DNA of 64,000 nt from an uncultured Gammaproteobacteria bacterium (GTDB lineage Bacteria; Patescibacteriota; Microgenomatia; Levybacterales; UBA12049): contig CAYOZJ010000002.1 of assembly GCA_964408485.1 (NCBI GenBank), positions 5,235-69,234 of the forward strand. Reading direction: 5' to 3'. Position numbers and translations under genes: made by a program. The notes beneath the pieces are model-generated. The model did no database searches, had not been told where the DNA came from, and saw only the letters and a list, made by a program, of their open reading frames with translations. This document shows, in pieces, positions 30,137 to 49,780 of this stretch. Position 1 is the stretch's first letter. The number at the start of each line of letters is the position of its first letter.

Positions 30137-30145
30137 ATTATATAG

Positions 30146-32284
30146 TTAGAAACACTTTCCTTTCTCAGCATGCCAGGGACCGTCCCAATTATTGCCTGCC
30201 GAGCGATAGAGACTTACTGCTGCTTTTACGTTGTTGGTTGGATTTTTCATAAAATTTGCGCAGCTATTTTCAAGGGATTGGTTTGCAATTTTGCATATAC
30301 CAGAACTATAACTAATGTTTTGGGCACACGACCTGGATACTAGGTCTCCATGTGCTAAAAGATTTATTTGAAATAAACCCACACTATAGTCTTTTGTCCC
30401 GCCTCGCAGACATGCACTATTAATAATTCCCGGATCTCCGCCGCTTTCGTGTTTGCAGATGCAACTTGCTACTGTTCCTTCTTTCTGTCCGCCAAAAAAT
30501 GGAGCAAGCGCTGTTGGACTACAGGAGCCTGATGCAAGCACAGGTTGACCTACTCGTACCGCACCAGTCGTATTAGCAGTTGTGGATTGATTTAGCCCAG
30601 GCGGTCCGCTCCCAAGTGCGTAGGCTGCAGTGATTTGGTTGTGAAGAATAATATCTTTTTCAGTGGGCGTTAGTGTTACATTAAATTCCCAGTGCTTATT
30701 AGATGCCGTTGAGTTAGGTAGGGGGGTATTTGCATCAAGATTCCAAGTAATGGAGTTGCCAGTCAACACGTGTTGTCCTGTAATACTATTTGCAACAATA
30801 GTGGCAGTCGTGGGAATTTGATCCGTTATAACCAACGAGTACTGGCCTGTGTAGTTAATATCAATGAGATATTTAATATTTTGTCCATTTAAATACGTTG
30901 TTTTGCCAGACGGGTCAGTAGTAAGGGTGAGAGTGAGCCCGGGAATTGGCGCAGTTCCTCCAGAGGGAGGGGGCGTATTAGAGAGAAGGATAATAATAAA
31001 TGCAGCAGCAAGTATAAGACCTAAGATTATTACAACTGCAACGAGAATAATGATAATGCCCAAAAGTACCTCTGGATCAATACCAAGCAGTAGAGCTAAT
31101 CCCTCAAAGCCACCTTGTCTTGCTGCAGCTCCTGCCACTAGCTCCTCTCCTTTTCTTGTTGTGTTTGCCAACTTTCTTCCTTCTCTTCCAGCATTTCTCA
31201 CTGCGTTGCCTGCTTGATTGACGAGTTGTCCTGTGCGACCATTTTGTTTTTGTTGTGTCGAACCCTGAAAGCTTCTTTGGGGAATTGCTTCCGGCTGCTG
31301 TTGAGAATAGTTTGCATGCTCAATTGCCGTATGAACGGTGTCTTCATACCCTTCATCAATTGTTGTGTTGTACGAAAAACCATACCTACCAAATTGTCTT
31401 ACTGCATCGTCGAGTGCAACTGATTGCCATTGATTGTCAAACGCCGTTCCAAGTCGTTGTAGTGCTAAGGAACGCATTGCGTCTGTCTGATCTGCATTTT
31501 GCGGTTGACCCCGAAGTGCTGCTTTTATGCTCTCGGCATTATATTGTTCTGTTTTTCGTTGGTTAAGAAGTTCTTGTGATTGATTACGTAATGCTTCGTC
31601 TGAAAGTGCCATGTTTTGGGTTTGCAGAAGCGGTGCAAGACGCGCATTGCCCTGTTTGCTTAGCTCGTCCAATTGTTGGGTAAGATCTTTTTTGTCTGCA
31701 TACAAGGATTGCGCTTGTGCCTGAAGTATTTTGTATTGATTTCCTAAAATTCCCGCAGCACTTAAATGAGTTCGGTAGAAATTTTCAATTGCGTCAGGAA
31801 GATCCTTCTCCGAGGTTGTGTCGAGAAGATGCTTAAAAGCATTAATCGTAGCAATTTTTTGCGTTTGCTTCAGTTTTTCGCTAGCTATATCTTTTGGATC
31901 CGGTCTACTGCTTCCGCCACCGTGATTTTCGGACTTTTTGGGAAGAATGCTCGCAAGCGTAGATGTTTGAGGTGGAGGAGTTTCTTGATTTGATACGGGT
32001 CCTGAAGTAGTAGGTGCGCTAAGGGGCTTACCCCATGCTAAAGCTTCTTCGAAAGTATTCTTTTCATCTCTTTCTAAGGAAAAAGGGTGCTCTTTGCCGT
32101 ATTCTTCAGCATACGCATGAATAAGCTCTCGGGCTAAGCGAGGAAAATTTTCATTATCATTAAGTCTTGCTGCTTGGCGTAATTCCTGAAGTCGGTCAAA
32201 AAGCTCTCGATTTCCCGCCCGTGCAGTTCGATCGAGAAATGCATAAAAACCATCCCACGTATTTGGAGCGTGATCATTGTCCAT
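30146..32284 (-). CDS. large bitopic protein with C-terminal VirB1/IagB-type lytic transglycosylase (SLT) domain
   Basis: 712 aa. A roughly 400-aa cytoplasmic N-domain without a P-loop, one TM (LGIIIILVAVVIILGLILAAAFIIIL) and an extracellular repeat region. The C-terminus carries CKHESGGDPGIINSA...GTKDYSVGLFQINLL, which matches the ES…DYGLMQIN signature of VirB1/IagB lytic transglycosylases. Confidence 0.6.
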   Translation of the reverse strand: MDNDHAPNTWDGFYAFLDRTARAGNRELFDRLQELRQAARLNDNENFPRLARELIHAYAEEYGKEHPFSLERDEKNTFEEALAWGKPLSAPTTSGPVSNQETPPPQTSTLASILPKKSENHGGGSSRPDPKDIASEKLKQTQKIATINAFKHLLDTTSEKDLPDAIENFYRTHLSAAGILGNQYKILQAQAQSLYADKKDLTQQLDELSKQGNARLAPLLQTQNMALSDEALRNQSQELLNQRKTEQYNAESIKAALRGQPQNADQTDAMRSLALQRLGTAFDNQWQSVALDDAVRQFGRYGFSYNTTIDEGYEDTVHTAIEHANYSQQQPEAIPQRSFQGSTQQKQNGRTGQLVNQAGNAVRNAGREGRKLANTTRKGEELVAGAAARQGGFEGLALLLGIDPEVLLGIIIILVAVVIILGLILAAAFIIILLSNTPPPSGGTAPIPGLTLTLTTDPSGKTTYLNGQNIKYLIDINYTGQYSLVITDQIPTTATIVANSITGQHVLTGNSITWNLDANTPLPNSTASNKHWEFNVTLTPTEKDIILHNQITAAYALGSGPPGLNQSTTANTTGAVRVGQPVLASGSCSPTALAPFFGGQKEGTVASCICKHESGGDPGIINSACLRGGTKDYSVGLFQINLLAHGDLVSRSCAQNISYSSGICKIANQSLENSCANFMKNPTNNVKAAVSLYRSAGNNWDGPWHAEKGKCF

Positions 32285-32287
32285 AGG

Positions 32288-34078
32288 CTATTTTGCGCTC
32301 TGTCCGGTCTCTGTTGGTGACAAGCTGGCATGCTGGTTTTGCATTTTTTGAAGTTCTTCTGGATCTGAGGTAATAATATTATGCTCAAAAGGTGCAGCAA
32401 CAATTTGAATGGCAACGTGATTCTGTCCTGCAAAGAAGAGTCCTTGGCCAACACCGGATGAGAGAAGCATTTGTCTTTCGCCATCAGATAGATAGAATGT
32501 TTTCGCGACCGTGTCAATTTCTGAGGTACTCTGCTTTAAAAGAATCTGTATAGAGCTGTTAGAAAGAATTGCGCGACCATAATCACTTGAAAGGAAATCT
32601 TGTACGTCTTGAGTCGCTGTAGTGAGTCCTAGATAGTATTTACGAGCCCTTTTGGCAATGCTGTACATAAAGGATGCAGAATCTTCATGTTTCATTAAGT
32701 ACCATGCCTCATCAACAATAAGTAAGCGTTTTTTTAAAGATTTTCTGACACGAGTCCACACAAAGTCTAAGAGAATATGCATTGCAATGGGTCTAAGTTC
32801 GTCTTCCAAGTCCCGAAGAGAAAAAATCGTGAGAGGATTTGTGATATTGAAATTCGATTGTTGGTTAAAAATGCCAGAAAGACTGCCGGTGACAAATTTT
32901 TCCAAACGGAGGGCAATGTTTTGTGCTATTGGATCCTGTGTTTTTACTAATCTCTGATACAAATCCTGCAAAATAGGAGGCGTTTTTGTCTGGCTTGCCG
33001 GATCTGCAGTAATTCCCTTATCTGCATATGTTTCAACAAGTGCTCTGTCCAAAATTGCATCTTCAGCAGGATTAACTGCACCAAGCATGATTTTTAAAAG
33101 TGCTCGGATAGAAAGGATCTTAAGTCCTAATTCGTTTTCTCCTTCTTCATAGACTCCTGATAAGTCAAATGGATTAATTCTCACAGGACTTGTTGCTGAG
33201 AAATTCAAATATTCTCCCCCTAAGCTCTCTGCGAGCTTGCCGTATTCACTTTCAGGATCAACAACAATAACTTCTGTCCCAAACATAAATTGGCGCATGA
33301 TTTCAAGCTTAATGCTAAAGGATTTACCTGATCCTGATTTTCCAAAAACAACTTCGTTAGCATTCTCTAAAGAGTATCTGTCAAAAATAATAAGTGAGCC
33401 ATTTTGTTGATTTACGCCGTACAAAATGCCTTTGTCTTGCGTTAAGGTAGCAGAGGTAAAAGGAAATGTCGATGCGAGACTAGATGTGTCCATGTTGCGT
33501 GTAATCGACAATTTGTCTTGTCCAATCGGTAGCGTTGTTTTAAATCCCTCCTCCATCTGAAGCGTTGCTGGTTTTGCTGTTACTAAAAGAGAGGAGAGCG
33601 TGCTGGTCAATTTTTTAGTTGCTTGTTCTAGTTCTGCGCTGTCTGTTGATGAGAGGGCAATGTAAAGACTAAATTGAAAAAACCGTTCTATTCCTTTTGC
33701 CAATTCTGCCTGGAGTCCAAGGGCGTCAGAAAGTGCTGCTGCAACTTTGGGATTTTCTGGTTTCCCTTTTTCTTCATCGCTTGACATTGTTGCTTCCATC
33801 TCGGCGATTTTGCGCTTTAAATTAGACAACACATCATCAGTAAAAATTGGATAGACAAACATACTAATTGCTAGAGAGTGATCAAAATCAATAACAGGGG
33901 ATAGCCACCCGACTGATACATATCGAGGGTAGCCAGAAACAAAAAATGTTCTGTAGAAATGATTACCGACACGAATCGTCTTAAAGTCTACCTCAACTTT
34001 TGTTGGGGCAATAGCATCTGCTGCATTGCCGGCTCCCTCAATAGATACTTCTTTAGATTTTTTAGTAAAAAGCGCCAT
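32288..34078 (-). CDS. virB4: VirB4/TrbE/CagE-family type IV secretion ATPase
   Basis: 596 aa. Walker A VFGKSGSGKSF, Walker B LLIVDEAWYLM, and the GLTTATQDVQDFL motif. Short, Gram-positive-like length. Confidence 0.85.
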   Translation of the reverse strand: MALFTKKSKEVSIEGAGNAADAIAPTKVEVDFKTIRVGNHFYRTFFVSGYPRYVSVGWLSPVIDFDHSLAISMFVYPIFTDDVLSNLKRKIAEMEATMSSDEEKGKPENPKVAAALSDALGLQAELAKGIERFFQFSLYIALSSTDSAELEQATKKLTSTLSSLLVTAKPATLQMEEGFKTTLPIGQDKLSITRNMDTSSLASTFPFTSATLTQDKGILYGVNQQNGSLIIFDRYSLENANEVVFGKSGSGKSFSIKLEIMRQFMFGTEVIVVDPESEYGKLAESLGGEYLNFSATSPVRINPFDLSGVYEEGENELGLKILSIRALLKIMLGAVNPAEDAILDRALVETYADKGITADPASQTKTPPILQDLYQRLVKTQDPIAQNIALRLEKFVTGSLSGIFNQQSNFNITNPLTIFSLRDLEDELRPIAMHILLDFVWTRVRKSLKKRLLIVDEAWYLMKHEDSASFMYSIAKRARKYYLGLTTATQDVQDFLSSDYGRAILSNSSIQILLKQSTSEIDTVAKTFYLSDGERQMLLSSGVGQGLFFAGQNHVAIQIVAAPFEHNIITSDPEELQKMQNQHASLSPTETGQSAK

Positions 34079-34080
34079 AA

Positions 34081-34671
34081 TTATTCGCTATATACATCAT
34101 GAAAAAGTTTTACCAATTCTGCTCCTGTAATAATCCGTGCACGAAGATTCATTCGGTCGATTTGAGAGAGAAGGCTTTCTGCTTTTGTCTTGAGTCCTGC
34201 ATGCGCCCTGATGAAGAAGTCATCAAGATTATCACTTCCCATTTTTGCAACTCCACCAATACCTTCTTCTAGAAGGGAGTAAGAAATAACAAAAAAGAAT
34301 TGTTTATCTAGGACTGTTGTTGATGTAACTAAGTCTTTAACAAACGATTGATATTGAAGAATGTCTTGGGAAAGCTTAGGGTTATTGGCTTTTTGGGAAG
34401 CAATGCCTAAGGAGTCGATATATGGGAGAATATTGACTTGTTTGCTACGCATGACAATTTGTACAGGGAAAGAAAGAGAATTAAGAAGTCCTGCGTAACC
34501 ATATACTTTCGCGTCCTGTTCCTCGCTTGATAAAAGGGCAAAATTTACTGCCTGGAGCTCGATAAGTAGGCAGGCATTGCCTCCTTTCATCAAAACAGTA
34601 TCCTCTCGAATGTCCAGGACTTCGGTAAAGGATTGCGTTGATTTTGCGTGATGTTGGGCAGCTTGTTTCAT
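34081..34671 (-). CDS. hypothetical cytoplasmic protein, co-transcribed upstream of virB4 (2-nt gap)
   Basis: About 197 aa from the internal Met; no motif. Could be a separately encoded VirB4 N-terminal or accessory domain (inference). Confidence 0.35.
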   Translation of the reverse strand: MKQAAQHHAKSTQSFTEVLDIREDTVLMKGGNACLLIELQAVNFALLSSEEQDAKVYGYAGLLNSLSFPVQIVMRSKQVNILPYIDSLGIASQKANNPKLSQDILQYQSFVKDLVTSTTVLDKQFFFVISYSLLEEGIGGVAKMGSDNLDDFFIRAHAGLKTKAESLLSQIDRMNLRARIITGAELVKLFHDVYSE

Positions 34672-34672
34672 A

Positions 34673-35848
34673 TTATCCAAAGAGCTCTTTGCGCAAATCT
34701 TCCCGTGCGTCAATTGAGATAACCTCAAGTGGTTGGAGAATGTCTCCAATTGCTTGGAGTTCTATTGTGTCAAAGCGCTGTTTGCTGTTAGGGTCTTCGA
34801 AGGTAAGCGTGTATGTGCCGTTGATAACAGGCGTTGCGGAAGCAAATTGTCCTAATGGATTTGTTTTAAAAGCTCGTACTGGATTTTCATCTTTATCTTT
34901 TACTTCAATTAAAATATTTGGTAGCACATTACCTCTAGGGTCTTTAACAACGCCGCAAATAAGATTGGGAGTATCGCTGACAAAAGGAGCACCTACTATT
35001 TTTGATTGCCCTGGTGCTACTTGCCTTACGTTTTCAGTAATCTTTGGCGTAGGAGCGCTAGACGGCGTAAATACCTGTTGGGGCTTTTGCGATAGCTGCT
35101 TTTGGAGCTCAAGTAGTTTTGTCTCAAGTTCTTGTTTTTGGGCACGAATTGATTGAAGCTGAGATTCTAAGTCGCCCACTTTTTCATGGGCCTCTTCGGC
35201 TTCTTTTTGGTCATGCGCCGCTCCTTCTTGTTGTTTTGCTGCAGCAATTTCTTTTGCCAAATCCACCGCCTCTTTACTTAGCTCTTGCTGATTTGTTTCT
35301 TCGTTTGTTGTGTTGCTTTGCGCGGAAACTGGGGCAATGGGCGTGCTTGCAAGTTGTATGGTAGGTATCTCTTGAGGTTTTTGCTCTTCAAAAAGCTTCT
35401 GGAAGGAAGTGCTGTCAACAGGCGTTACTAGTTGCACTTTTTCTTCCTTTTCTTCTCTCTTTTCCTCTTTTTTTTCCGGTTGATTGTCTACTGTTGTGGT
35501 TGGGGTAGGTGCATCATCAGATGATTTATACGTATATTGTGTTGGCGAGAAAACAGCCTTAAAGAAGTAAAAGATCATGCTGTCTGCTGGTCGTCCAGCA
35601 AGTGGGATAAAAGCCAAAATAACCCCAGAACCTGCAAAAAAAACAATAAGCGGCAGTTTTATGAGAATAAAAACAGGAAGAGACAGACTTATCCATGCCA
35701 ATACAACACCTGCGGCAAGGTAAGCAAATTGCTTAATGGTCATATCGCCAATTAAGCGAAATTGAAATCCTGTAACATCTTGTGGAATAGGATGATTATC
35801 CATATAAAAAAGTGTATGACGTGAAAAATCCCATTGCAACCCTTTCAA
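34673..35848 (-). CDS. T4SS-associated bitopic membrane protein: VirB3-like TM hairpin, coiled coil, and C-terminal β-sandwich domain
   Basis: 391 aa. N-terminal PIPQDVTGFQFRLIGDMT followed by two TM helices gives a VirB3/TrbD-like topology. A Glu/Lys/Gln-rich coiled coil follows. The C-terminus resembles a carboxypeptidase-regulatory-like β-sandwich (GVVKDPRGNVLPNILIEVKD...NGTYTLTFE). Confidence 0.35.
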   Translation of the reverse strand: MKGLQWDFSRHTLFYMDNHPIPQDVTGFQFRLIGDMTIKQFAYLAAGVVLAWISLSLPVFILIKLPLIVFFAGSGVILAFIPLAGRPADSMIFYFFKAVFSPTQYTYKSSDDAPTPTTTVDNQPEKKEEKREEKEEKVQLVTPVDSTSFQKLFEEQKPQEIPTIQLASTPIAPVSAQSNTTNEETNQQELSKEAVDLAKEIAAAKQQEGAAHDQKEAEEAHEKVGDLESQLQSIRAQKQELETKLLELQKQLSQKPQQVFTPSSAPTPKITENVRQVAPGQSKIVGAPFVSDTPNLICGVVKDPRGNVLPNILIEVKDKDENPVRAFKTNPLGQFASATPVINGTYTLTFEDPNSKQRFDTIELQAIGDILQPLEVISIDAREDLRKELFG

Positions 35849-35912
35849 AATAGATCACCCTCGTGGCTACAGGACGCGTGAAAAAAAATAAAAAAAATGC
35901 AATACTAAAGTC

Positions 35913-36569
35913 ATGCCACTTTCTCTTTTTGTTGGGATCCTTATTATTCTTTTTTTACTCTCCCGCCGGGTTACCCGCTTGCTCTCGCATTTATTTGTTC
36001 GTCTTTTCCGCAGTCAGCACGCAGCGATCTATGCATTGTCTTTTATTTTTCTTCCTGGGGTTGTTTTGCATGAACTGTCACATTTGCTTTTGGCAAATAT
36101 TCTTTTTGTTCCAACAGGAGAGGTCGAATTTTTTCCAGAGATTCAAGGGGATCAAGTAAAAATGGGAAGTGTTGCTATTGCTCGCACAGACCCTTTACGA
36201 AGATTTCTTGTTGGTGTTGCACCGGTTATTGGAGGATTGGGTATTATTCTTTTAGCATCAACATATCTTTTTACCACACTTCTTTCTTGGCAAAGTTTAG
36301 TACTTTTTTACATAATTTTTGAAATAGCAAATACAATGTTTTCCAGCAGTAAAGACATGGAGGGAGCAGTAGGACTTCTTATTGGTCTTGCAGCGCTGAG
36401 TATTTTGCTACAATTTCTTGGTCTGCCATTATGGCAAGTGGTGATTCAGTTTCTGGGGAATGAATTCGTAAACAGCATTCTTATTAGAATGAATTTATTT
36501 TTGCTTTTAGCGCTGGGGCTTGACGTCTTTCTCGTGCTTCTTTTTGAAGGAATTGCCAGACTAAAGTAA
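35913..36569 (+). CDS. membrane-embedded HExxH zinc-metallopeptidase-like protein (DUF3267-like)
   Basis: 218 aa, 5-6 TM. HELSH lies within the GVVLHELSHLLLANI helix. It is the only plus-strand gene inside the minus-strand T4SS-like cluster, and it is adjacent to the pilin genes. Confidence 0.4.
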   Translation: MPLSLFVGILIILFLLSRRVTRLLSHLFVRLFRSQHAAIYALSFIFLPGVVLHELSHLLLANILFVPTGEVEFFPEIQGDQVKMGSVAIARTDPLRRFLVGVAPVIGGLGIILLASTYLFTTLLSWQSLVLFYIIFEIANTMFSSSKDMEGAVGLLIGLAALSILLQFLGLPLWQVVIQFLGNEFVNSILIRMNLFLLLALGLDVFLVLLFEGIARLK

Positions 36570-36890
36570 CTACTGACATGTTCCAAATCCAAACGAAAGA
36601 ATGCACGTGACTCCTGTAATGCCCGCAACAAGACCGATAATAAAAAATGAAAGAAGGACAATGATGAGACCGATAATGGCATAGGTGACAATATTTTTTG
36701 CTTCTTCAACGCCCTTGCCTCCACCGGAGGTTATATATTTAATGCTTGCAAAAAGAAGCATAAAAAGAGAAGCAAGCCCCACAAGATAAATAGCCGCACC
36801 TACTCCAATTCGGTATAGCGGAATAATGCAGGAAAGTGTTGGAATACCATTTACTACGCAGTCTTGACCATTAACAATCCATGAACTCAT
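36570..36890 (-). CDS. VirB2/TrbC-like pilin candidate (paralog 1 of 4)
   Basis: 106 aa with two hydrophobic helices flanking the ASIKYITSGGGKGVEEAKNIVTYAIIGLII core. Conserved with the other three paralogs. Confidence 0.5.
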   Translation of the reverse strand: MSSWIVNGQDCVVNGIPTLSCIIPLYRIGVGAAIYLVGLASLFMLLFASIKYITSGGGKGVEEAKNIVTYAIIGLIIVLLSFFIIGLVAGITGVTCILSFGFGTCQ

Positions 36891-36931
36891 ATATGTAGCC
36901 TATCAGAGAGAAAATAAGAAAACAAGAGAAG

Positions 36932-37327
36932 TTACCTTGTTAATGTAGGGAGCGTAAGATTAAATAGACTTACACCAACAAACAAGTTAAGAACAAAGTT
37001 GACGATGAGATAAGAAAGAAAAATAATAACAAGGCCAACAACAGCTGCCACTATTGTTTCGCGTGCTTTGTTAACGCCTTCTTTTTCTCCTTGAGACGTA
37101 AGCCACTTGACGCCGCCAAGAATCAAGAAAACTAATGCCAGCATGGCGGCAACAACAAAAACAAAATTAATTGCATTACCGATTACTTTATTTAAATCAG
37201 AGGCTCCAAGACAAAGAGCGCTAAAGTTACCAGGGGGACATGCATTAATGTTAACATCTGCAAATGCAATAGGAGCAAGAAATGCAGAAAGACTGAGCGT
37301 GCCGATTGAGGCAAATAATTTCTTCAT
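36932..37327 (-). CDS. VirB2/TrbC-like pilin candidate (paralog 2; Sec signal peptide)
   Basis: 131 aa. Signal peptide ...APIAFA|DV. Core LILGGVKWLTSQGEKEGVNKARETIVAAVVGLVIIFLSYLIV. Confidence 0.55.
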   Translation of the reverse strand: MKKLFASIGTLSLSAFLAPIAFADVNINACPPGNFSALCLGASDLNKVIGNAINFVFVVAAMLALVFLILGGVKWLTSQGEKEGVNKARETIVAAVVGLVIIFLSYLIVNFVLNLFVGVSLFNLTLPTLTR

Positions 37328-37367
37328 TGACTCTATCGTAGAAACAATTCTTTATCTTGTCAAGTCG

Positions 37368-37706
37368 CTAGTTGCCAAGAAGATGTACGCCAAACGTGAA
37401 ACCAATGAAGTTAATAATAAAAAATGACAAAAGAGCGAGAATAAGGCCGACAATCGCATATTGGATTGTTTTTTGTGCACCCTCCAACTGCTTTTTGTCT
37501 CCTTGAGACGTAATCCATTTTATTCCCCCAAACATAATAAAGAAAAATGAAAGTAAGATTACTGCAACAAATATGCTAATAATGACAAAAGAAACAATGC
37601 TTTGGATCGAGTTATTGTTCATGAGATTGCGTATTTGATTGGGAACGAGCACAGGATAGGTTGCTGGTTCATCTGGGTTGCCAATAACAAGAGCAAGATA
37701 CCTCAT
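37368..37706 (-). CDS. VirB2/TrbC-like pilin candidate (paralog 3)
   Basis: Start at the internal Met (37706). Core IMFGGIKWITSQGDKKQLEGAQKTIQYAIVGLILALLSFFII. Confidence 0.5.
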   Translation of the reverse strand: MRYLALVIGNPDEPATYPVLVPNQIRNLMNNNSIQSIVSFVIISIFVAVILLSFFFIMFGGIKWITSQGDKKQLEGAQKTIQYAIVGLILALLSFFIINFIGFTFGVHLLGN

Positions 37707-37707
37707 A

Positions 37708-38355
37708 TTATTTCCTAAAACCTGGAATTTGGAGAATATCAACGCCAATAAATTGCAAGATAACCACAGAGAAGATGATAAATATTAACCCAACAATTGC
37801 AGCAGTTAGTCTTTCCCTTGCTTCTTTTACTTTTTCAGGATTACCCTGTGACGTAATCATTTGGTATCCTGCAGCAATAACAAGAAGAATCGCAACCCCC
37901 CCGGAAAGTCCAAGAAGAATACCAAAGGTGCTTTTTACGAATCCCGCAACGGTTGTTTGAATGGGTCCAAAAGCAGTATCAACGCTTGCACATGTTCCAT
38001 TGGCATAGGTTTTGCATGGCGGAGCTAAGTATGGTGATGGTGAAGGGGGAATGGGTTTATTTTTATCTTTTGGCTCACAGCAATAGCCCGAACCCAAGAA
38101 GCCGCATTTTGGAACACATGGGCCAGTATCCCACAGGAATAAGCCACACCTACTACTTGTTCCATATTTGTATGAAGCATTAGGGGCTCCGTTAATAGTG
38201 CAGTTGTCACCCGGTTTTGGATTAGAAGCATTGGCATCTTGCGGCTGAGCGTTGCAATAGTTTGGATAATTACAGTCAGCCTGTACGTTTCCTAATGTGG
38301 CAAGGGTTAGGCAGAAGAAAACAAAGATAAAGACTCCTATTTTGAAGAATTTCAT
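37708..38355 (-). CDS. Cys-rich ectodomain fused to a VirB2/TrbC-like pilin module (paralog 4)
   Basis: Signal peptide MKFFKIGVFIFVFFCLTLATLGNVQA. A roughly 110-aa domain carries about 12 Cys (DCNYPNYCN...CGFLGSGYCCEP...). The C-terminus reads GYQMITSQGNPEKVKEARERLTAAIVGLIFIIFSVVIL. Confidence 0.5.
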   Translation of the reverse strand: MKFFKIGVFIFVFFCLTLATLGNVQADCNYPNYCNAQPQDANASNPKPGDNCTINGAPNASYKYGTSSRCGLFLWDTGPCVPKCGFLGSGYCCEPKDKNKPIPPSPSPYLAPPCKTYANGTCASVDTAFGPIQTTVAGFVKSTFGILLGLSGGVAILLVIAAGYQMITSQGNPEKVKEARERLTAAIVGLIFIIFSVVILQFIGVDILQIPGFRK

Positions 38356-38396
38356 ATATCTATCGTCCCACATGCTATCTTTGATTGTCAAGAAAA

Positions 38397-39764
38397 TTAT
38401 TGCTCGAATCGTATCCCTCTGCCTTTAACAGTGAGAATATGGATAGGTTTTGTGGGATCCTCTTCAATTTTCTTTCGAAGACGTAAGATGAGTTGGTCAA
38501 GTGCTTGCTCACTTACTCCAGATTGTGTTTTTGTGTCTGACCAAACAGTAGTAATAATTGTTTCTCGGTCAACAATGGTTCCTTGTTGTTTGAGAAGAAG
38601 TCGAAGTAAGCGAAACTCAGAAAACGTAAGCGTATCGGAGATAGGTTGTTCATCCTGATTGATTGTATTTGTTGATTCATCAAGCACAATTTTTGTAGAT
38701 ATATGTTTTGTGCTTTCTGTTTTTACATATTGTGCAAAAAGAGGAATGGTAATTTTTTGATTGTGAATAAGTCCAACGCTTTGAAGGAATTCGCTGGGGA
38801 GAGGGCAGTTGCCATTCTTGCAAAGCATGAGCATATCTTGTCTCTCATCTGGCGTTAGGAAGAGCCACAATTCCTTCAGTACTCCTTGGATGCCCTTTGT
38901 TCTGAGAAGAGATTTTTCAGTAGCACCGGCAAGAAGCGCTTCAAGCCCAAGCTTAGTGAGTTTGCCATGCCAGCCGGTAAGTGCAAGAAGCTTTTCAATG
39001 TATGACTCTGGTAATTTTTTCCCTGCAAGTTTTTCTAAGTAACGTAGGCGAAAGTCAAACCCAATGCGATCTTCAAGCTGTAGATAGATTGTGTTGTCCA
39101 CAACAAATTCATAAAAATCAGAAAAGATTTCTGGTTCAAGCATATCCTCCAGAGGACGTGTCGATGAGAAGACAATGGAAAAGGCATATTTTGCTCTGCT
39201 GCGAATGCTTCGCAAATTGTTAAAAAATTCTTCACTTGCCTGAGGGACAAAGGTTTCAAACCGGTCAAATAAAAAAATAATATGTAATTTTTTCTCAAGA
39301 GTTAGGTAATCAAATGCATCTTTAAGCTTCTGAAACAAAACCAACTCATCGTTATACGAAAGTGCTTCCTTAAAAAGCTTGTCTACCATTAAAAACTCTT
39401 CTTCTTTGCGTCTCTCATGCAGGCTAGATGCAAGCTCAAGAAAGAAGAATTTCATTATGTCAAAAAGAGACCTGTTTTTGATTTCTGAGAAATGAATTAA
39501 AACAAAATGATAGACCTCCTGCTTTGCCTCTCCTACATGGTGAATTCGTATATTTCTGTTATACGTTAATAAATTCAAGACAAAATTTCTTCCGGCTCCA
39601 GGCAGCGAGATAAGCTGAAGAGATTTACCAGCGTTAATTGCAGAAAAGATTTCTCCGATTTCTTTCTCGCGGGTAGTTGCCGGATAAAGAGATTCTAAGC
39701 GCTCCGCTTCATAATTGACTATTGAAGAGTGATTATTGACAATTGACCTGGATTTATTTTTCAT
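38397..39764 (-). CDS. transcriptional regulator, C-terminal OmpR/PhoB-type wHTH with N-terminal degenerate P-loop-like domain. Sits immediately upstream of the pilin genes on the same strand.
   Basis: 455 aa. The C-terminus (FSEFRLLRLLLKQQGTIVDRETIITTVWSD...ALDQLILRLRKKI...ILTVKGRGIRF) is a trans_reg_C wHTH. The N-terminal SLQLISLPGAGRNFVLNLL is paralogous to 12763..14064. Confidence 0.5.
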   Translation of the reverse strand: MKNKSRSIVNNHSSIVNYEAERLESLYPATTREKEIGEIFSAINAGKSLQLISLPGAGRNFVLNLLTYNRNIRIHHVGEAKQEVYHFVLIHFSEIKNRSLFDIMKFFFLELASSLHERRKEEEFLMVDKLFKEALSYNDELVLFQKLKDAFDYLTLEKKLHIIFLFDRFETFVPQASEEFFNNLRSIRSRAKYAFSIVFSSTRPLEDMLEPEIFSDFYEFVVDNTIYLQLEDRIGFDFRLRYLEKLAGKKLPESYIEKLLALTGWHGKLTKLGLEALLAGATEKSLLRTKGIQGVLKELWLFLTPDERQDMLMLCKNGNCPLPSEFLQSVGLIHNQKITIPLFAQYVKTESTKHISTKIVLDESTNTINQDEQPISDTLTFSEFRLLRLLLKQQGTIVDRETIITTVWSDTKTQSGVSEQALDQLILRLRKKIEEDPTKPIHILTVKGRGIRFEQ

Positions 39765-40116
39765 AGCTATTGCCCTTCGCTGTTTTAATAGAACTCACGA
39801 ATATCTTTACGATTTGAATTCCTTCATCAATCAAAATATCAAACTTTTTCCTCAATGACGGATTTATCTCAGCAAGCAGATCAAGCCAATAGACAGTTTC
39901 ATGTGCTTCCTTGCGACAAATATTTATTATATGTGTGAAGTCTAACTTTGTGTCTGCAAATATGGCCTCAGCATAGTTAGCTCCTATTGACGATACCGAT
40001 CTTATGAGCTGTTTTGCGAAAACAATGTTTTCCTGAGTTTTTGGAAGACTTCTTAATAAGAAAATAGTTTCTAGAACAAATTTTTTAATTCTTCCAGACA
40101 GCTCCTTACTTGTCAT
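39754..40116 (-). CDS. four-helix-bundle protein (23S rRNA intervening-sequence protein family)
   Basis: 120 aa. SIGANYAEA resembles the hallmark motif of the family (…SVGANIAEG…). Confidence 0.5.
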   Translation of the reverse strand: MTSKELSGRIKKFVLETIFLLRSLPKTQENIVFAKQLIRSVSSIGANYAEAIFADTKLDFTHIINICRKEAHETVYWLDLLAEINPSLRKKFDILIDEGIQIVKIFVSSIKTAKGNSYEK

Positions 40117-40147
40117 AGTTACTTAATCATAATTTTTAACCTTTAAT

Positions 40148-40201
40148 TAGTCAATTTATCCTATGGTCAATAATCAATTGTAAATAATAAATAGTCAATT
40201 T
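40148..40201. repeat. direct repeats TAGTCAATTT x2 (40148..40157, 40192..40201) in the divergent promoter region
   Basis: Two exact 10-mers 44 bp apart, with a related GTCAATAATCAATT between them. Candidate operator sites. Confidence 0.35.
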
Positions 40202-40262
40202 CGTAATGGTTTTGTGAGGTAAATATCAAGGAAAAATCTTGAGTTAATTCTACAATACGCTC

Positions 40263-43200
40263 ATGAGTAATGCAGAATTGACACCAACTGGAGGAAGCAG
40301 GTACGATGGATATATGAGTGCAGGTACATCAACAGCCACAGCAGAAAGACCATCATCCTACCAAAGCGATGTAGCCCCAGCGCCGGTAAGTGAAGCAACA
40401 GCATCGCTTAAGGCAAATGCAGACACTGGGAGAGAAACTGGTGTGGAGCCTATTTCTGCTAAAACAGATGCGCTGCCGGAATTGACAGAAAGAGTAAACA
40501 AAGAGGGAAGAAGAAATCTTACCAGTAATGAGCTAATAAAAGTTGCAAATACTGTCCAAGGAAAGGCTTCGGCAGGAGATGTGATGGCTGATGCCGATTT
40601 TGTGTCGAATGCAGCAAAAATTCTTATTTATAATATTGAGTCTGATGTTGCAAATCACAATACAAATCAAGTCATGCTTGCAGAGTTTAAAGCCAACAAG
40701 ATTCCTGAGGCAGCAAAAGAGCTTGCAGAGGCAATAACAGTAATTAAAGCAAACGGTCAGCTAACGGAAAATGAAGATACAGGTGACAGATGGGAGAGAA
40801 TTAAACAGCAAGCGGGCCGTATTGCTGATTTGGCAAAGACGATCTCTTCGTATTATGAAAGAGCAAAACTTTCCAGAGAATATGACGATCCATTTAGGCA
40901 GGTTGTCTCATTTGAAGAATTGATGACCAGATTTAATATTACGCTTGATGATGATCGCTTTAAGTCGGGTGGGGACTTTTCTCTTATCGACATTAATGAA
41001 TATGAAGATCAATTTGGACGGCAAATGTCCGATGAAACAGCACATCCAGAAAATTTCTACCGCTGGGTTATGGAGCGGGCAGAGTTTTACCATGACTTTG
41101 ATCCCATGGCGCCGGTTGATCTTTTTCAAGGAATGTACATCGTAGCAGGCTCAAGAAAAATTCCTATGTATGAAATGTTAGTTGATTTTAATTCATACTT
41201 TGCTCACCGGGTAAAAACAAAAGGAGAGTTAAAGGTTTTGGAATCAGATTTGGATCGTGCAGAAAAAGCAGGAACATATGAGTCAATGGCAGTAATAGAA
41301 GGGGGGAGAGAGGTCTTAAAAACGGATCCTTATGATCAGAAAGCGCTTGGTCGTTACAAAAATGTTGAGATTATTGATGAGGAAACGGGTGAGAAGAAGA
41401 CTGTAGATGTATATGTTAGTCCAGTTCCTGAAGAAGATCAGGAAAGGCATGTACGAGTTTTGCCAGTGTATTACTACAACGATAAAGGTAAGCTTATGCC
41501 AGTGCGAGAATGGTTGCAAAGTAAAGAACAGTGGGACACAATTCCGCCAAAAGATCCAAGAGCAAAAGAATTTGAAAATGCGCAGGAAGAAATTATGTAT
41601 CAGCTATGGCTTCAGACAAAAAGTCATAATGCAGACGTGAATTATCGACAAAAGGGTATGCCAAGTGAGACTCCATTAAAAGACGTTATGGCAGAAATTT
41701 ACAGTGATAATATTTGGACACGTACGCATCGAAGAATTGCTGGCATTTTAGACATGCCTGCCTCAACGTATAGAGGTGACGTAGATGAAAATGGCAAGCC
41801 CATTAACGAAGCTGCAATGAAGTGGAAAGGCAAAGATATAGGACAAGGAACTTTGGGAAAAGCATTCCAGAGGTCTTTAGCTGCGTATTATCATATTGCA
41901 GAAGCAAATGCAGAGTATAACAAATACAATACTGAAGGATTTAATCCCTTTTTTAACATATTAGAAAGACGGGCAAATGAGGGAAAAGGAGAACTTGAAG
42001 TAAATGGAGGAGAGATTTTTTACAAAGCACTTATTGGGAGACTTCTTACAAATAAAGATGATACTCAATTCGATGAAGGGAACTTAAGCTATAGATTCGA
42101 TAAAAAACATCCAGAAAGTAGTTTTGTAGAGGCTGAATTTTTGGCAGAAATTAATAATATTCGCGTCCCAATAAAAGACGGTACAACGCGAGCGAGATTT
42201 GCTTGGGAAAAAGCAGAATTGGCAGATTTGCTTATGCATAATCGCGCAGATTTTTTGACCACCTCAAACGAGGGAAGAAGTAGGTCTATAACGTCAGGAG
42301 CTCTCGCAGAAGTGGAAAGAATAATACGTGAAAGATACGCAGAAAAAAGAGATGAAAACGGAAATGTTATTCAGGTAGCAAATAGAGAAAGGTTGCAACA
42401 ATTACAAATATTTCTTGACTCATTTAATAAGTCAAATAATTCAGATCAAAGAAGAGGAGATTTTCTTGATATGGTGAAAAAAAGGGTTAGACCAGGTAGT
42501 AGTGAGAGTGATGTTGATGCGTATAATAGGACAGAAAAAGCTTTCAGGGACGATGCTTCGCTAAAAAACCTTTCAGGTTTTGCTGTTGCCATGTTTGTTA
42601 GGTCATTTGATGGAAATAAGGATTTTACTGCCGGTATTAATCCGTATGAGAATATTCGCTATTCCTTAGATGCAAGAGAATTAATGCGAGGCGCAATGCG
42701 CGATACAATTTCCTACACAGAAAAGTTAGACGATCATGATGCATTGTGGGCAGAGGAATGGGCATATACCTTCACATTCCATACTGGCATTTCAGCAAGA
42801 AATGATATGCAGGGAATTGGGCATGATGCATGGTCGAAAGTAATCAATACAGAATTTTACCGTTTGCGTCAGTCTGGCGGTGGTAATTATTTGGGGAATA
42901 AAGATAATTTATATGGTATTCATCGGCTTGGGACTGACTTTTGGCAAGGATTAAAGGTGCGAGAGAAAGGATCAAATGAATACGGGAAAAATTTGTATGA
43001 AATTCTTGTTGGTTTAGAAAATGTAACGGATTCAAAAGGGAACGTAATAGGTCATAGAATGAATCTAAATAAAGATGTGAAAAAATTTGAATTTGCAGGA
43101 AATGCAATGCGCCAATTCTATGCGGATCATGTAAGTCATGCTGTTGATATGTTTATTGATATTACTCAAAAGCAGGAATTTAACCTGGATAAATTACTGC

Positions 43201-43838
43201 ATAGAGATCAATTGGGACGAATGACATGGAATAATGAAGAAATGCAGAAAATGATTGATTCAACATGGAAACATATGCGATATGGTTTTGATAATAATGG
43301 ATTTTTGTATGACAATACTGTCTACGGGTGGCTGTATGACGAGACTATTAATGCTCATGGTCAAGTATCACGAAAGCCTCACTTTGGCTTTATGACACTT
43401 CGGGAGTCTATGTTTAGTAAAAAAGTACGTGAAATGGGAATGTATAACAGGCATGATGTGTCGGGTTGGGCTGCAAATCAATACAAATCAAAAATGGGAC
43501 GTAATGTTTTTGCATACCTTATTGCAGCGCAGCTTCGCGAGCATACACGAATGGCAGGGGGGTATAAACTTTATTCTGCAGAAGATGTTGAACACATTGC
43601 TCATGCATTCATGGAGTATGCCGCTCGTGTGATGCAGGGACAAGATGGTGAGGCGATTGTGCTATCTGGATTCTTTACGCCAGAGGAAATGATGAAGATC
43701 TTGGTAACAGGCCACGCAATTCTCTGGGCGCTCTGGATGCGTGAATATAGAGATGCATTCACAGGAGGATTCTTGTTTGGTTTTTTTGAAGCATTAGGCC
43801 TTGTCATGAAACAAGCAGGGGCAGGAATAAAGTTTTAA
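40263..43838 (+). CDS. very large hypothetical protein (1191 aa), no P-loop, no TM, no signal peptide
   Basis: Long uninterrupted ORF with typical codon usage; no family motif recognised. Embedded in the T4SS-like locus and convergent with the VirB6-like gene. Confidence 0.5.
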   Translation: MSNAELTPTGGSRYDGYMSAGTSTATAERPSSYQSDVAPAPVSEATASLKANADTGRETGVEPISAKTDALPELTERVNKEGRRNLTSNELIKVANTVQGKASAGDVMADADFVSNAAKILIYNIESDVANHNTNQVMLAEFKANKIPEAAKELAEAITVIKANGQLTENEDTGDRWERIKQQAGRIADLAKTISSYYERAKLSREYDDPFRQVVSFEELMTRFNITLDDDRFKSGGDFSLIDINEYEDQFGRQMSDETAHPENFYRWVMERAEFYHDFDPMAPVDLFQGMYIVAGSRKIPMYEMLVDFNSYFAHRVKTKGELKVLESDLDRAEKAGTYESMAVIEGGREVLKTDPYDQKALGRYKNVEIIDEETGEKKTVDVYVSPVPEEDQERHVRVLPVYYYNDKGKLMPVREWLQSKEQWDTIPPKDPRAKEFENAQEEIMYQLWLQTKSHNADVNYRQKGMPSETPLKDVMAEIYSDNIWTRTHRRIAGILDMPASTYRGDVDENGKPINEAAMKWKGKDIGQGTLGKAFQRSLAAYYHIAEANAEYNKYNTEGFNPFFNILERRANEGKGELEVNGGEIFYKALIGRLLTNKDDTQFDEGNLSYRFDKKHPESSFVEAEFLAEINNIRVPIKDGTTRARFAWEKAELADLLMHNRADFLTTSNEGRSRSITSGALAEVERIIRERYAEKRDENGNVIQVANRERLQQLQIFLDSFNKSNNSDQRRGDFLDMVKKRVRPGSSESDVDAYNRTEKAFRDDASLKNLSGFAVAMFVRSFDGNKDFTAGINPYENIRYSLDARELMRGAMRDTISYTEKLDDHDALWAEEWAYTFTFHTGISARNDMQGIGHDAWSKVINTEFYRLRQSGGGNYLGNKDNLYGIHRLGTDFWQGLKVREKGSNEYGKNLYEILVGLENVTDSKGNVIGHRMNLNKDVKKFEFAGNAMRQFYADHVSHAVDMFIDITQKQEFNLDKLLHRDQLGRMTWNNEEMQKMIDSTWKHMRYGFDNNGFLYDNTVYGWLYDETINAHGQVSRKPHFGFMTLRESMFSKKVREMGMYNRHDVSGWAANQYKSKMGRNVFAYLIAAQLREHTRMAGGYKLYSAEDVEHIAHAFMEYAARVMQGQDGEAIVLSGFFTPEEMMKILVTGHAILWALWMREYRDAFTGGFLFGFFEALGLVMKQAGAGIKF

Positions 43839-45647
43839 CTATTTATTAAGACCTGGTTCGTTTTCTCCAGCAAGTTTTCTCATCTTACCAAATGGCGTAG
43901 GGATATTCATAAACCACTTTCGCAATCCTCCTTCACTCAAGCCTCGCACAGTATCTTGATGTCTGGTAAGTCTTTTCCATGGCTGACTGACAATACTACT
44001 GTATGCTTGGGTTCCTTGAGCCAACATTTGTCCAACTCCTGGTAAGTATTTAATATCCGGAGCCTTTAGAGCGTCTTGAAGCATGGTGAGCGCTTGAGGT
44101 AGAAGCAAGATAATGCCAAACCCAATAAGCGGTCCCATAAATTGACTTACCCCATTTGGGACACCAATAAGAGGTGGAACAAAGCCTGTTTTACTTTGCA
44201 GATAGACATCTGAAATAACTCGTCCGAGTAAAATAATACCTATTGCATAGGGAAAAACAAGGCTATACGCAAGCAAGTGACGAAGCCAATTGTCAAAGTT
44301 AATAGAAGTACCGGGTAATACGCCAAGCAAAATAAAGAACGGTCCTAATATCGCATAGAGGAGGAAAAGAACATATGATTTTAAAAGCGAAAAGTACATG
44401 CGAAGAAGCGCGAAAAGAAGCGCAAAAGCAAAAATAAAGAAAGCAACAATACCAGCAATACTGGATATGCCATCAGTAAAGCCGTTTTTAATACATGATA
44501 CTAAGGGTGAATCGGCGGCATTTGTTGCGAGCTGAACAGCTCCAGCAACATGATTGCCAAAAATAAGGTTAGCAACTGCACCGAAATTGCCCAGAATTGG
44601 CTGTGCAACAGCATTTCCTATTGCTTGGGGAACCGAAGCGGGAAGAGCCAAAACCCTTAGCGGAAGAGGAAGGAAGCCGAATGCTCCCTGGCTTCCCAAT
44701 AATTGTTGAGGTGCATTACCAATTGATCCCAAAAAGCAAGGAATAATGCCAGGAAGTGCCATCCAGCCTGCATTTTGCACAAGAGCCTGAGCGAGTCCGA
44801 CATTTATGTCGTAAATTGATGCGGCAGGTTGTACAATCATTCCCAAAATGCCACCTGTATAGACAGTGTCCAGAAATGTAATAGGATTGGTAGAGATATT
44901 TGCTGTCATCAACGCAGGTTGCAGCGCTGGATCAAGTGTTGAAAAAAGATTAATAGTAATAAATGTCGCAAGCCACATAATATCGATAACAAATCCGGCA
45001 ATTGCATAAGAAAATGTTACAAGAATCAATGCGACAATAATCTTTGGAATCTGATTTTCAATTGTCATAACTGTACGTGGATCTATTTTTGCCCGAAGCA
45101 TAATCGCAAATCCCACAACAACAAAAACAATAACAAATAATAAGTATGCAACATTGCGAAATGCAAGCCAAAGCTTCATAACTGGTGCCAACTGATCAAA
45201 TCCTGTGCCTGATGCTGCATTTGCACTTTTTACTGCGCCAAAATTTCCTGCAACATAGCTGACATAATTACCAACATGGAATTGTGGCGGACTGAAAAGA
45301 AGAGCAATGCCAGAGTTGGTGAGACCGAGAAGACCTTGATTTGTTGTTGTAGCGCGAGTTAACTGTCCTGTTTTGGAATTGTACCCAAGACATCCTTGCT
45401 GAGGACTGGTGACATCTCGTCCATCGATTGCACAACTTGCAAAAGAGAGAAATCCCCACATGACGCCTTGTGCTAGATTGCTTACCGTTGGGGCAACAGT
45501 ATTGTCAAAAGAGTTTGTTGCGGTTTGAGTATTAACTGGAATTTCTTGTTGGGCATAAACCTTGGAAGGTAAAAAGGAATAGACACTAGATAGTATAAGA
45601 AGCAAAAGTACGCCAATTGCACTAAAAAACCGGGCAGAAAAATGCAT
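43839..45647 (-). CDS. polytopic membrane protein, VirB6/TrbL-like candidate
   Basis: 602 aa. Signal peptide, a roughly 120-aa extracytoplasmic N-domain, then 7 or more TM helices with Gly/Ala-rich loops. Architecture and locus context fit a VirB6-type channel component; there is no diagnostic motif. Confidence 0.35.
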   Translation of the reverse strand: MHFSARFFSAIGVLLLLILSSVYSFLPSKVYAQQEIPVNTQTATNSFDNTVAPTVSNLAQGVMWGFLSFASCAIDGRDVTSPQQGCLGYNSKTGQLTRATTTNQGLLGLTNSGIALLFSPPQFHVGNYVSYVAGNFGAVKSANAASGTGFDQLAPVMKLWLAFRNVAYLLFVIVFVVVGFAIMLRAKIDPRTVMTIENQIPKIIVALILVTFSYAIAGFVIDIMWLATFITINLFSTLDPALQPALMTANISTNPITFLDTVYTGGILGMIVQPAASIYDINVGLAQALVQNAGWMALPGIIPCFLGSIGNAPQQLLGSQGAFGFLPLPLRVLALPASVPQAIGNAVAQPILGNFGAVANLIFGNHVAGAVQLATNAADSPLVSCIKNGFTDGISSIAGIVAFFIFAFALLFALLRMYFSLLKSYVLFLLYAILGPFFILLGVLPGTSINFDNWLRHLLAYSLVFPYAIGIILLGRVISDVYLQSKTGFVPPLIGVPNGVSQFMGPLIGFGIILLLPQALTMLQDALKAPDIKYLPGVGQMLAQGTQAYSSIVSQPWKRLTRHQDTVRGLSEGGLRKWFMNIPTPFGKMRKLAGENEPGLNK

Positions 45648-45721: not shown

Positions 45722-45810
45722 TCACAAGTTGTCGCTGCGGCGACCCTCGCGATCCCGCCTCCCTCGCTTTGCTCAGTCCGGCATTCGAATCCCGAGAATT
45801 AATAATCTAG

Positions 45811-45898
45811 CGGAGAGGACGGGATTCGAACCCGTGATGCTCTTGCGAACATACACGCTTTCCAAGCGTGCGCACTAGACCAACTATGCGACCTCTCC
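45811..45898 (-). tRNA. tRNA-Ser (anticodon GGA)
   Basis: Hand-folded. Acceptor GGAGAGG/CCTCTCC+G, anticodon arm CACGC-TTGGAAA-GCGTG, a long variable arm, T-loop TTCGAAT. No encoded CCA. Confidence 0.8.
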
Positions 45899-45908
45899 TT
45901 GTCGAAAA

Positions 45909-46337: not shown

Positions 46338-46424
46338 TATCAGTATTCTAAAAGGTAAATATCAAGAAAATAGCCTTAATATATCCTAGAATAGCCTTGC
46401 TATTATACCGTATTTATATTTAGC

Positions 46425-48909: not shown

Positions 48910-48911
48910 TG

Positions 48912-48985
48912 CGTCCCCGGGCAGATTTGAACTGCCGATCTTCAGGTTCGGAACCTAATGCTCTATCCAACTAAGCTACGAGGAC
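48912..48985 (-). tRNA. tRNA-Arg (anticodon CCG)
   Basis: Hand-folded. Acceptor GTCCTCG/CGGGGAC+G, anticodon loop TTCCGAA, T-loop TTCAAAT. Confidence 0.75.
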
Positions 48986-48998
48986 AGATATTTGAGGG

Positions 48999-49088: not shown

Positions 49089-49093
49089 CTATG

Positions 49094-49166: not shown

Positions 49167-49214
49167 ATGAAAGTAGGAGTATTATACCTGATTTAGACCA
49201 TATGGAGCAAAAGA

Positions 49215-49739: not shown

Positions 49740-49780
49740 ATACTTACTGTACTTGAGTGAGGAAATGGAGTCAAGAAGAG

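Follow-up and report, generated by a model that had tools for sequence, protein, structure and literature searches.

The locus and its largest gene

The window analyzed here is a stretch of 64,000 nucleotides (nt) from contig CAYOZJ010000002.1 of a Patescibacterial genome (GenBank assembly GCA_964408485.1, order Levybacterales in the GTDB) and contains a type IV secretion system (T4SS) locus. Within this locus lies a large gene, called BIG here together with its product, at positions 40263..43838 of the plus strand; it starts with ATG, encodes 1191 amino acids (aa), and ends with a TAA stop at 43836-43838. An earlier note on this DNA, made from its letters alone, had named it the longest open reading frame (ORF) of the window, and so it is, the runner-up having 894 aa. 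Upstream lies a partner gene (38397..39764, minus strand, 455 aa) that always adjoins the large gene and whose product ends in a winged helix (wHTH) of the OmpR/PhoB type. Downstream and convergent with BIG is the gene of a 602-aa VirB6/TrbL-like polytopic membrane protein (43839..45647, minus strand). The TAA of BIG and the VirB6-like stop (TAG, minus strand) abut, with 0 nt between them (43836-43841; 1-20 nt in other loci), and the convergent arrangement inside a T4SS locus that the note had described is thus supported. Because the two stops abut, the transcripts would overlap, and no terminator-like site is present between them. The rest of the T4SS cluster (28260..38391, minus strand) encodes Big_5, CHAP, SLT_3, VirB4, TraC/TrsD-like and PrgI(VirB3)-like proteins and four VirB2-like pilins. 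BIG is one variant, belonging to a core superfamily that we call G1, of a large protein that is the obligatory occupant of a fixed slot in such loci of Microgenomates-type Patescibacteria.

The gene is real: its start codon is backed by an N-terminus conserved in nine full-length homologues, and the conservation spans the whole length. The protein contains 8.5% E, 7.0% D, 6.6% R, 6.3% K, 6.0% N, 4.5% Y, and 1.5% W, with a net charge of -30 and a cysteine count of 0. Its N-terminus is polar, so that a Sec signal is absent, and a regular expression for the Walker A motif (G....GK[ST]) found nothing in the protein, in line with the note on both the missing signal peptide and the missing P-loop. 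The mean Kyte-Doolittle hydropathy (KD) stays below 1.8 in all segments. Only the helix at the very C-terminus is hydrophobic (aa ~1164-1186; KD of 1.36 in a 19-aa and 1.62 in a 17-aa span), and the last ~25 residues, GGFLFGFFEALGLVMKQAGAGIKF, form a hydrophobic, Gly-rich helix. The claim that the protein has no transmembrane (TM) segment therefore stands by the 1.8 threshold and needs a caveat for this helix.

Searches of Pfam, NCBIfam, PHROGs, and PADLOC gave zero matches for BIG, and sequence and profile searches of the PDB returned just low-complexity matches to its N-terminal linker. The note had held that a match to a housekeeping family would speak against a role in secretion, and none was found in the four family libraries or the PDB. 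Features of the type IV coupling protein (T4CP) are absent, as there was no match to T4SS-DNA_transf, TraG or FtsK, no Walker A motif by regular expression, and no N-terminal TM anchor. HUH or Rep_trans relaxase domains were not found in BIG and 46 family members (Pfam, NCBIfam) or in the comparison of BIG with the PDB, which supports the note in its statement that relaxase, primase, and ATPase motifs are lacking. Toxin or trafficking domains (LXG, PAAR, Rhs, etc.) were likewise not found in BIG or the 46 members. At the C-terminus, where the note had suggested looking for a positively charged secretion signal, the net charge is only +1 (last 30 and last 50 aa) with no Arg/Lys-rich tail, and Pfam detected no XVIPCD domain. 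We also considered the absence of cysteine as evidence of export and rejected it: the cytoplasmic proteins of the window, which BIG resembles in this respect, are equally Cys-poor, and the Cys-rich ones are the exported pilins, CHAP, and SLT proteins.

An undescribed family of large proteins

The note had called BIG an orphan, and this proved wrong. A word-indexed search retrieved nine relatives only (38-100% identity), and a 27-sequence profile used in the protein homologue search recovered the same nine proteins. A HMMER profile built from these nine, searched exhaustively against 1.84 billion representatives, yielded 229 relatives at E<=1e-3, 175 at E<=1e-10, and 80 at E<=1e-30. They are all large, soluble, and Patescibacterial, those that could be identified being labelled "Patescibacteria group" with one Candidatus Levybacteria (Microgenomates group). 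Full-length G1 members (n=138, at least 750 aa) range from 750 to 1680 aa and have 0-6 cysteines each. TM segments are lacking in 136 of the 138, with one borderline segment in member P0073, and the five or more TM helices that characterize VirB6/TrbL were found neither in BIG nor in the G1 members. Three blocks (A, B, and C, see below) are collinear in G1 members, including the motif ARND..G.G.D.W.K..NT..YR.RQ. In a Pfam scan of 46 diverse members, eight scattered matches appeared, each in a single member (the best, to a DUF, at 7e-5), and no family recurred. BIG is thus a member of a sizeable, previously undescribed family.

A locus search with a narrow alignment gave four genome loci, and tblastn against plasmid and phage collections gave no match. 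One close relative with 45% identity (P0008, locus L005, contig DASQJJ010000069.1) is cut by the contig end and comes from a metagenome-assembled genome labelled Candidatus Eisenbacteria; this contig, 5.9 kb long, probably stems from a Patescibacterium and was binned wrongly.

Parts, conserved residues, and predicted structure

An AlphaFold run with nine sequences was too poor for use (predicted local distance difference test, pLDDT, 50.9), and a run with 72 family members was used instead, reaching a pLDDT of 87.0 and a predicted template modeling score (pTM) of 0.85. The model predicts a disordered N-terminal segment of ~85 aa, a helical bundle (87-200), a mixed alpha/beta part (217-427, block A plus a beta insertion), a long helical region (432-780), an alpha/beta region (800-1166), and a terminal helix. 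The description of BIG as helical-looking was therefore partly right, the model being mixed alpha/beta. Foldseek searches of the model against the PDB and BFVD gave no match.

From the N-terminus, the protein opens with the signature peptide MSNAELTPTGGSRYDGYM (aa 1-18, 40263..40316, plus strand as for all parts), the local form of a family motif described below, followed by a low-complexity linker predicted to be disordered (aa 19-85, 40317..40517; pLDDT < 50-60 in both models). The helical bundle at aa 87-200 (40521..40862) is subfamily specific according to model and alignment. Block A (aa 217-320, AHPENFYRWVMER..FYHDFDPM, 40911..41222) contains N264, W268, and R270, near-invariant family-wide, and is followed by a beta-rich insertion (aa 321-427, 41223..41543) that only close subfamily members have, its occupancy being 0.1-0.2 across the 72 aligned sequences. 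Block B (aa 432-600, 41556..42062), with near-invariant E447, Y461, T486, G532, and Y542, leads into a variable, mostly helical region by model and alignment (aa 601-780, 42063..42602). Block C (aa 781-1166, 42603..43760) is, by the family alignment, the hallmark of superfamily G1 and holds the peak motif, aa 842-890 (GISARNDMQGIGHDAWSKVINTEFYRLRQSGGGNYLGNKDNLYGIHRLG, 42786..42932), where G842, N847, D848, D855, Y866, R867, and G878 are near-invariant. Across 72 members, conservation is maximal at aa 841-870 (motif GISARNDMQGIGHDAWSKVINTEFYRLRQ), and in block C N793, F944, H956, R1006, Y1007, and H1094 complete the near-invariant set. The peak motif would be a candidate active or ligand-binding site. 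The tail (aa 1167-1191, 43761..43835) consists of a Gly-rich linker and a hydrophobic/amphipathic helix ending K-F, the family-wide form being G..G..x..K; the model places the terminal helix at aa 1173-1190, with falling pLDDT.

Two readings of conserved-looking residues were discarded. The N-D-x-x-G-x-x-x-D spacing recalls the NSE metal motif of terpene synthases, for which there was no fold match, and the GHD and HxxH residues, which could be read as HD-domain and HUH signatures, are not conserved family-wide.

A conserved position and a fast-diverging gene

In all eight genomic contexts of family members that were examined, the order wHTH gene, big gene, convergent VirB6-like gene is kept, usually with a NUDIX gene next, while the identities to BIG are 51, 38, 31, 27, 33, 29, 24, and 26%. 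In three of these loci (L008, L009, and L010), the wHTH gene is co-directional with the big gene and 70-90 nt upstream of it. Between the window and locus L011, identity is 81% for VirB4, 59% for PrgI, 56% for the wHTH protein, 39% for VirB6, and 26% for BIG; against L002 the corresponding values are 80, 53, 59, 42, and 38%. The partner protein keeps 43-60% identity in loci where BIG drops to 24-51%. BIG is the fastest-evolving gene of the locus.

A metagenome scan anchored on the wHTH partner gene gave 80 loci. Wherever at least 3.5 kb were available on both sides (34 loci), the slot held an ORF of at least 700 aa (34/34), and slot genes in the loci examined measure ~800-1850 aa. Among the 52 loci with a readable slot ORF, 40 have it divergent from the partner gene and 12 co-directional.

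The slot as an exchangeable cassette

These 52 slot proteins fall into 20 that match the family profile (G1), 30 of a second type (G2), and two of a third (G3, 1570-1690 aa). G2 consists of two BLAST clusters, G2a and G2b, linked by hhalign with 99.7% probability. The G1 and G2 profiles align at the N-terminal motif only (hhalign E 2e-4, probability 45%), with a weak alignment of the C-terminal tails (E 0.009, probability 4.6%). There are thus at least two core superfamilies without detectable homology to each other, and on the partner-gene tree the G1 and G2 types are interleaved.

Close relatives make the exchange visible, loci with 65-94% identity in the partner, VirB4, and VirB6 genes having large proteins that defy alignment. 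Loci L080 (G1), L047 (G2a), and L050 (G2b) are 84-85% identical in the partner gene, 84-89% in VirB4, and 64-65% in VirB6, and their slot proteins cannot be aligned (L080-L047 and L047-L050) or align only over the first ~45-58 aa (L080-L050). This was also the case in the wider clade L047/L049/L050/L054/L080 (partner 84-88%, VirB6 59-82%), where most slot pairs are unalignable or share the N-terminus only. L071 and L074 are 93% identical at the nucleotide level over 2.2 kb, a stretch that takes in the partner gene with sequence beyond it, the intergenic region, and the 5' end (~230 nt) of the slot gene. In VirB6 they are 81-83% identical, the ~2.5-kb core is essentially dissimilar (one 106-nt match at 73%), and the slot proteins align only over aa 1-168 (60% identity). 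Pairs with the same allele diverge as well: one has 85% identity in the partner, 82% in VirB6, and 46% in the slot protein, and another 77% in the partner and 24% in the slot protein. The slot is exchanged by recombination among divergent, partly non-homologous alleles, often with short conserved ends. Since VirB6 is equally distant (64-65%) with any core type, the core type does not co-vary with VirB6, which fits a modular design of handle plus cargo.

Shared ends

What the slot proteins share lies at their ends. The N-terminal motif (N-motif) has the consensus MKE..(E)LT....L..RGDIFM.E, with M-K/T-E variants, and is followed by a linker rich in Pro, Glu, Gln, and Gly. As a regular expression it matches 43 of 138 G1 representatives (31%), 5 of 20 G1 slot proteins, and 23 of 32 G2/G3 slot proteins (72%), against 2 of 233 control ORFs (0.9%) and 12 of 3800 shuffles (0.3%), an enrichment of ~30- to 200-fold. 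BIG alone among the window ORFs has it at the true start. Between some G1 and G2 proteins the similarity continues past the linker for 100-160 aa, for example with 50% identity over 161 aa.

At the other end stands a helix that is hydrophobic or amphipathic and has a basic terminus. In some G2 proteins it resembles a TM segment; in G1 it is mostly Gly-rich and amphipathic, and fairly hydrophobic in the window subfamily. Its mean KD is 0.91 in G1 slot proteins (n=20), 0.99 in G1 representatives, and 1.66 in G2 slot proteins, 34% of which reach a C-terminal KD of 1.8.

A putative substrate or host-interaction factor

The window locus agrees with the published layout of Patescibacterial T4SSs, which are MPF-FATA-like, with arrays of pilins, a place near dnaA, and no relaxase (PMC12102498); it is monoderm-type, chromosomal, and dnaA-proximal. 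In cultivated Saccharibacteria the T4SS is essential for epibiotic growth on the host (PMC10633639; reviewed in PMC12857230). These systems are not conjugative and their substrate is not established (PMC12102498, PMC10633639), and the coupling protein is usually missing from the loci (PMC10633639, PMC12102498, PMC12857230). The same three papers do not mention BIG.

Because the slot is constantly filled and the ends are modular, with a core that can be exchanged and shows no co-variation with VirB6, we favor the reading of BIG as a polymorphic T4SS substrate, effector, or host-interaction/host-specificity module, a putative role to which we give a probability of about 40%. The hypervariability of the slot shifts the odds toward a substrate or host-interaction factor and away from the giant scaffold that the note had also proposed. 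BIG would be made in the cytoplasm without a Sec signal and would be recognized by its conserved ends, that is, by the N-terminal motif on its disordered tether and by the C-terminal hydrophobic/amphipathic helix. The T4SS would then present or translocate it, and the large core, exchangeable between lineages, would be what acts on the host cell, either enzymatically, as an effector, or as a module that sets host specificity. To judge by its invariant polar residues, the G1 core looks enzyme-like or ligand-binding, and its polar cluster ARND..G.G.D.W.K...YR.RQ could be the catalytic or ligand-binding site.

Several points weigh against this reading. To our knowledge, no N-terminal T4SS signal has been described, and a coupling protein to recruit a cytoplasmic substrate was not found in the locus. 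A compact 130-kDa protein, as the model predicts (pTM 0.85), would need unfolding for transit. The N-motif is short and detected by regular expression in only 31% of the G1 representatives; the module at aa 1-215 of the window subfamily was not found in the other groups, so that, by sequence comparison, the N-motif is the one link between this subfamily and the rest. A C-terminal hydrophobic helix without a signal peptide looks like that of a tail-anchored cytoplasmic protein. G1 and G2 might share a fold beyond profile detection, and no cognate immunity-like gene was found after the cassette, which ends 0-20 nt from the VirB6 stop. The comparative data consist of metagenomic contigs, many independent ones of which agree.

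The main alternative, which we hold to be somewhat less likely, makes BIG a membrane-tethered cytoplasmic accessory of the T4SS, whose C-terminal helix would anchor it near VirB6/VirB4, whose N-motif would dock to an ATPase or to TrsD, and whose core would serve as adaptor, gate, or platform. In this role it would replace either the coupling protein that the locus lacks or the large hydrophilic domains found on extended VirB6 proteins in other lineages. Such a role would suit a slot that is always filled and always beside VirB6, a protein with almost no cysteine (as in the cytoplasmic proteins of the window) and no signal peptide, and a hydrophobic or amphipathic C-terminal helix, which in part of G2 looks like a clear tail anchor. 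It would also suit a locus in which no T4CP was found, as reported for other Patescibacterial loci (PMC12102498). In Southlakia, hydrophilic ARM-like domains of ~250 aa are part of the VirB6-like SEML1_0011 and SEML1_0013, and a soluble giant of its own is absent from the locus (PMC10633639 supplement). Against it stand the allele exchange, since the subunits of a machine are not normally swapped for unalignable proteins where VirB4 is 84-89% identical, and the core type, which does not co-vary with VirB6. In addition, BIG has no NTPase motif, the convergent orientation speaks against a simple fission from VirB6, and TM domains that would link it to VirB6 were not seen (136 of 138 members, as above). 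A substrate or effector and a cytoplasmic platform, both of which the note had offered, are thus the two readings that survive.

That the gene has nothing to do with secretion and belongs to a variable island under wHTH control, a recombination hotspot for phage defense or kin discrimination, is improbable. Unannotated large proteins swapped between near-identical flanks typify defense hotspots, the neighbor is an NTPase-like winged-helix protein, and a mobile-looking four-helix-bundle gene is present or absent in the same gap. However, PADLOC gave no match, the slot was filled in 34 of 34 loci, no integrase or transposase was seen in it, and the recurrence of the N-motif (often) and the C-terminal helix (in many variants) would be unexpected for independent defense systems; the first ~170 aa kept across a swap point to one functional class.

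Least likely of all, and a very remote prospect, is that BIG is a DNA-processing enzyme, such as a non-canonical relaxase working with the wHTH protein in a cryptic machine for DNA transfer or uptake. In its favor, most Patescibacterial T4SS loci lack a canonical relaxase and very different ones have been left open (PMC12102498), invariant Tyr, His, Asp, and Arg residues occur in the G1 core along with a Gly-rich R/K loop, the pairing with a DNA-binding protein is tight, and a ComF-like gene is nearby. Against it, no HUH, Rep_trans, TOPRIM, or nuclease family matched in 46 members or the PDB, an essential DNA-processing enzyme would not be replaced by non-homologous cores, and a transcription factor is the simpler reading of the wHTH protein.

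The substrate or host-specificity reading can be extended to all slot proteins (G1, G2, and G3), which would then be T4SS cargo or host-specificity determinants, with the shared N-terminal peptide, on its disordered tether, as a novel type of T4SS recognition signal that needs no coupling protein, and core exchange as host switching or tracking. We regard this wider proposal as unlikely in full. If the slot proteins were cargo, wholesale exchange of a ~1000-aa core would let epibionts switch or track bacterial hosts. BIG is a concrete candidate for what the Patescibacterial T4SS handles, and the slot can be used to follow how strains diversify in uncultivated lineages of the Microgenomates type. 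The two peptide handles and the set of invariant residues are open to direct testing.

Comparison with known systems

The closest parallel is CagA of the Helicobacter pylori cag T4SS, a protein of ~120-145 kDa encoded in its locus, with no signal peptide, its own fold, disordered segments, allelic polymorphism, and no sequence relatives beyond its lineage. CagA export has been shown experimentally and involves C- and N-terminal signals, the chaperone CagF, and the coupling protein Cag-beta. BIG is likewise a large, polymorphic in-locus T4SS protein with disordered segments, a predicted fold of its own, relatives confined to its lineage, and no signal peptide; it differs in that its locus has no T4CP, its target would be a bacterium, and it is known from sequence alone, and the two show no sequence or Foldseek similarity. 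Polymorphic toxins (LXG/T7SS, Rhs, CdiA, MAFB, and the XVIPCD effectors of Xanthomonas-type T4SSs) also combine a conserved end with an exchanged region, but there the exchanged part is a C-terminal toxin of 100-300 aa, whereas here it is a whole core of 700-1500 aa between two conserved ends, with no downstream immunity gene and no trafficking or toxin domain.

Conserved anchors with a variable part are also known from the TraN variants of F-like plasmids and the CagY repeats, thought to serve partner specificity or host evasion; these are Sec-exported envelope proteins, TraN being Cys-rich. BIG resembles them in its conserved ends and variable part and differs in having no signal peptide and no cysteine. 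The T4CP (VirD4/TcpA), a membrane-anchored cytoplasmic protein that meets substrates, is of interest in that its role may be vacant here, but Walker A/B motifs, a match to the FtsK/HerA fold, and an N-terminal TM anchor are all lacking in BIG. Extended VirB6 proteins (the Rickettsiales paralogues, TcpH of pCW3, and SEML1_0011/0013) offer a hydrophilic mass linked to VirB6 in systems without an outer-membrane complex (PMC12857230), while BIG is a separate soluble protein encoded by a convergent gene, with no detected homology to VirB6. In its way of working, BIG would come closest to T4SS effectors encoded within the secretion locus, CagA among them, and to effectors of polymorphic architecture. 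What is new is a T4SS-associated polymorphic protein built from superfamilies, at least two of them large and defined here, that have no model in the four libraries searched (Pfam, NCBIfam, PHROGs, and PADLOC).

The partner gene and the surrounding locus

The N-terminal domain of the partner protein has a degenerate Walker-A-like LPGAGRNF (pattern LPGxGR[SN]N) and a Walker-B-like FLFDRFE, and its matches to solved structures are confined to the winged helix. The simplest reading makes it the transcription factor of this locus; it might interact directly with the slot protein. A paralogue with 25% identity is found in the window at 12763-14064 (minus strand); both have the Walker-A-like domain (G-R-S/N-N for G-K-S/T) and the OmpR-type winged helix, and only the wHTH matches a curated family. 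Between the partner gene and BIG lies a small four-helix-bundle gene (39754..40116, minus strand; TIGR02436 / 23S rRNA IVP family), which occupies the same place in some other loci (L016, L028, L036, L037, and L073). In the remaining loci it is elsewhere or absent, and many G2 loci have an unexplained gap of ~500 nt at the spot. The divergent intergenic region (40117..40262) is AT-rich and has promoter-like hexamers on the minus strand only; a promoter and terminator scan gave no sites above chance.

Just upstream of the T4SS cluster are dnaA and dnaN (25679-28258). Within the cluster, on the opposite strand, a 218-aa polytopic membrane protein without a Pfam match (35913-36569, plus strand) is kept in L001, L002, and L011 at 48-60% identity. 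Neither a T4CP nor a relaxase was found anywhere in the 64-kb window.

Downstream of the NUDIX gene there is an ORF of ~117-162 aa (46425-46913, plus strand), kept in L001, L002, and L011, and one of 667 aa (46906-48909, plus strand), with a match in L001 and a 631-aa gene at the same place in L011. Pfam, PHROGs, and PADLOC gave no match for the 667-aa protein, which has a single C-terminal TM segment at ~aa 635. Both ORFs may be further components of the locus. Near the T4SS, a ComF/GntX-like protein with a double zinc ribbon and a phosphoribosyltransferase domain is encoded at 51867-52568 (plus strand), and such a gene is likewise near the T4SS in Saccharibacteria (PMC7427843). The 894-aa runner-up in length (18014-20698, minus strand) is a DUF4012 protein with a sub-threshold match (E 2.8e-4) to the EndoU-like C-terminal domain of coronavirus NSP15. 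A tRNA cluster (45810-51800) comprises five tRNA-Ser (GGA, CGA, TGA, ACT, and GCT) and two tRNA-Arg genes; the ACT anticodon of one tRNA-Ser (51587-51672) is unusual, and this gene overlaps a 221-aa ORF that is probably spurious. A tmRNA follows at 52819-53221.

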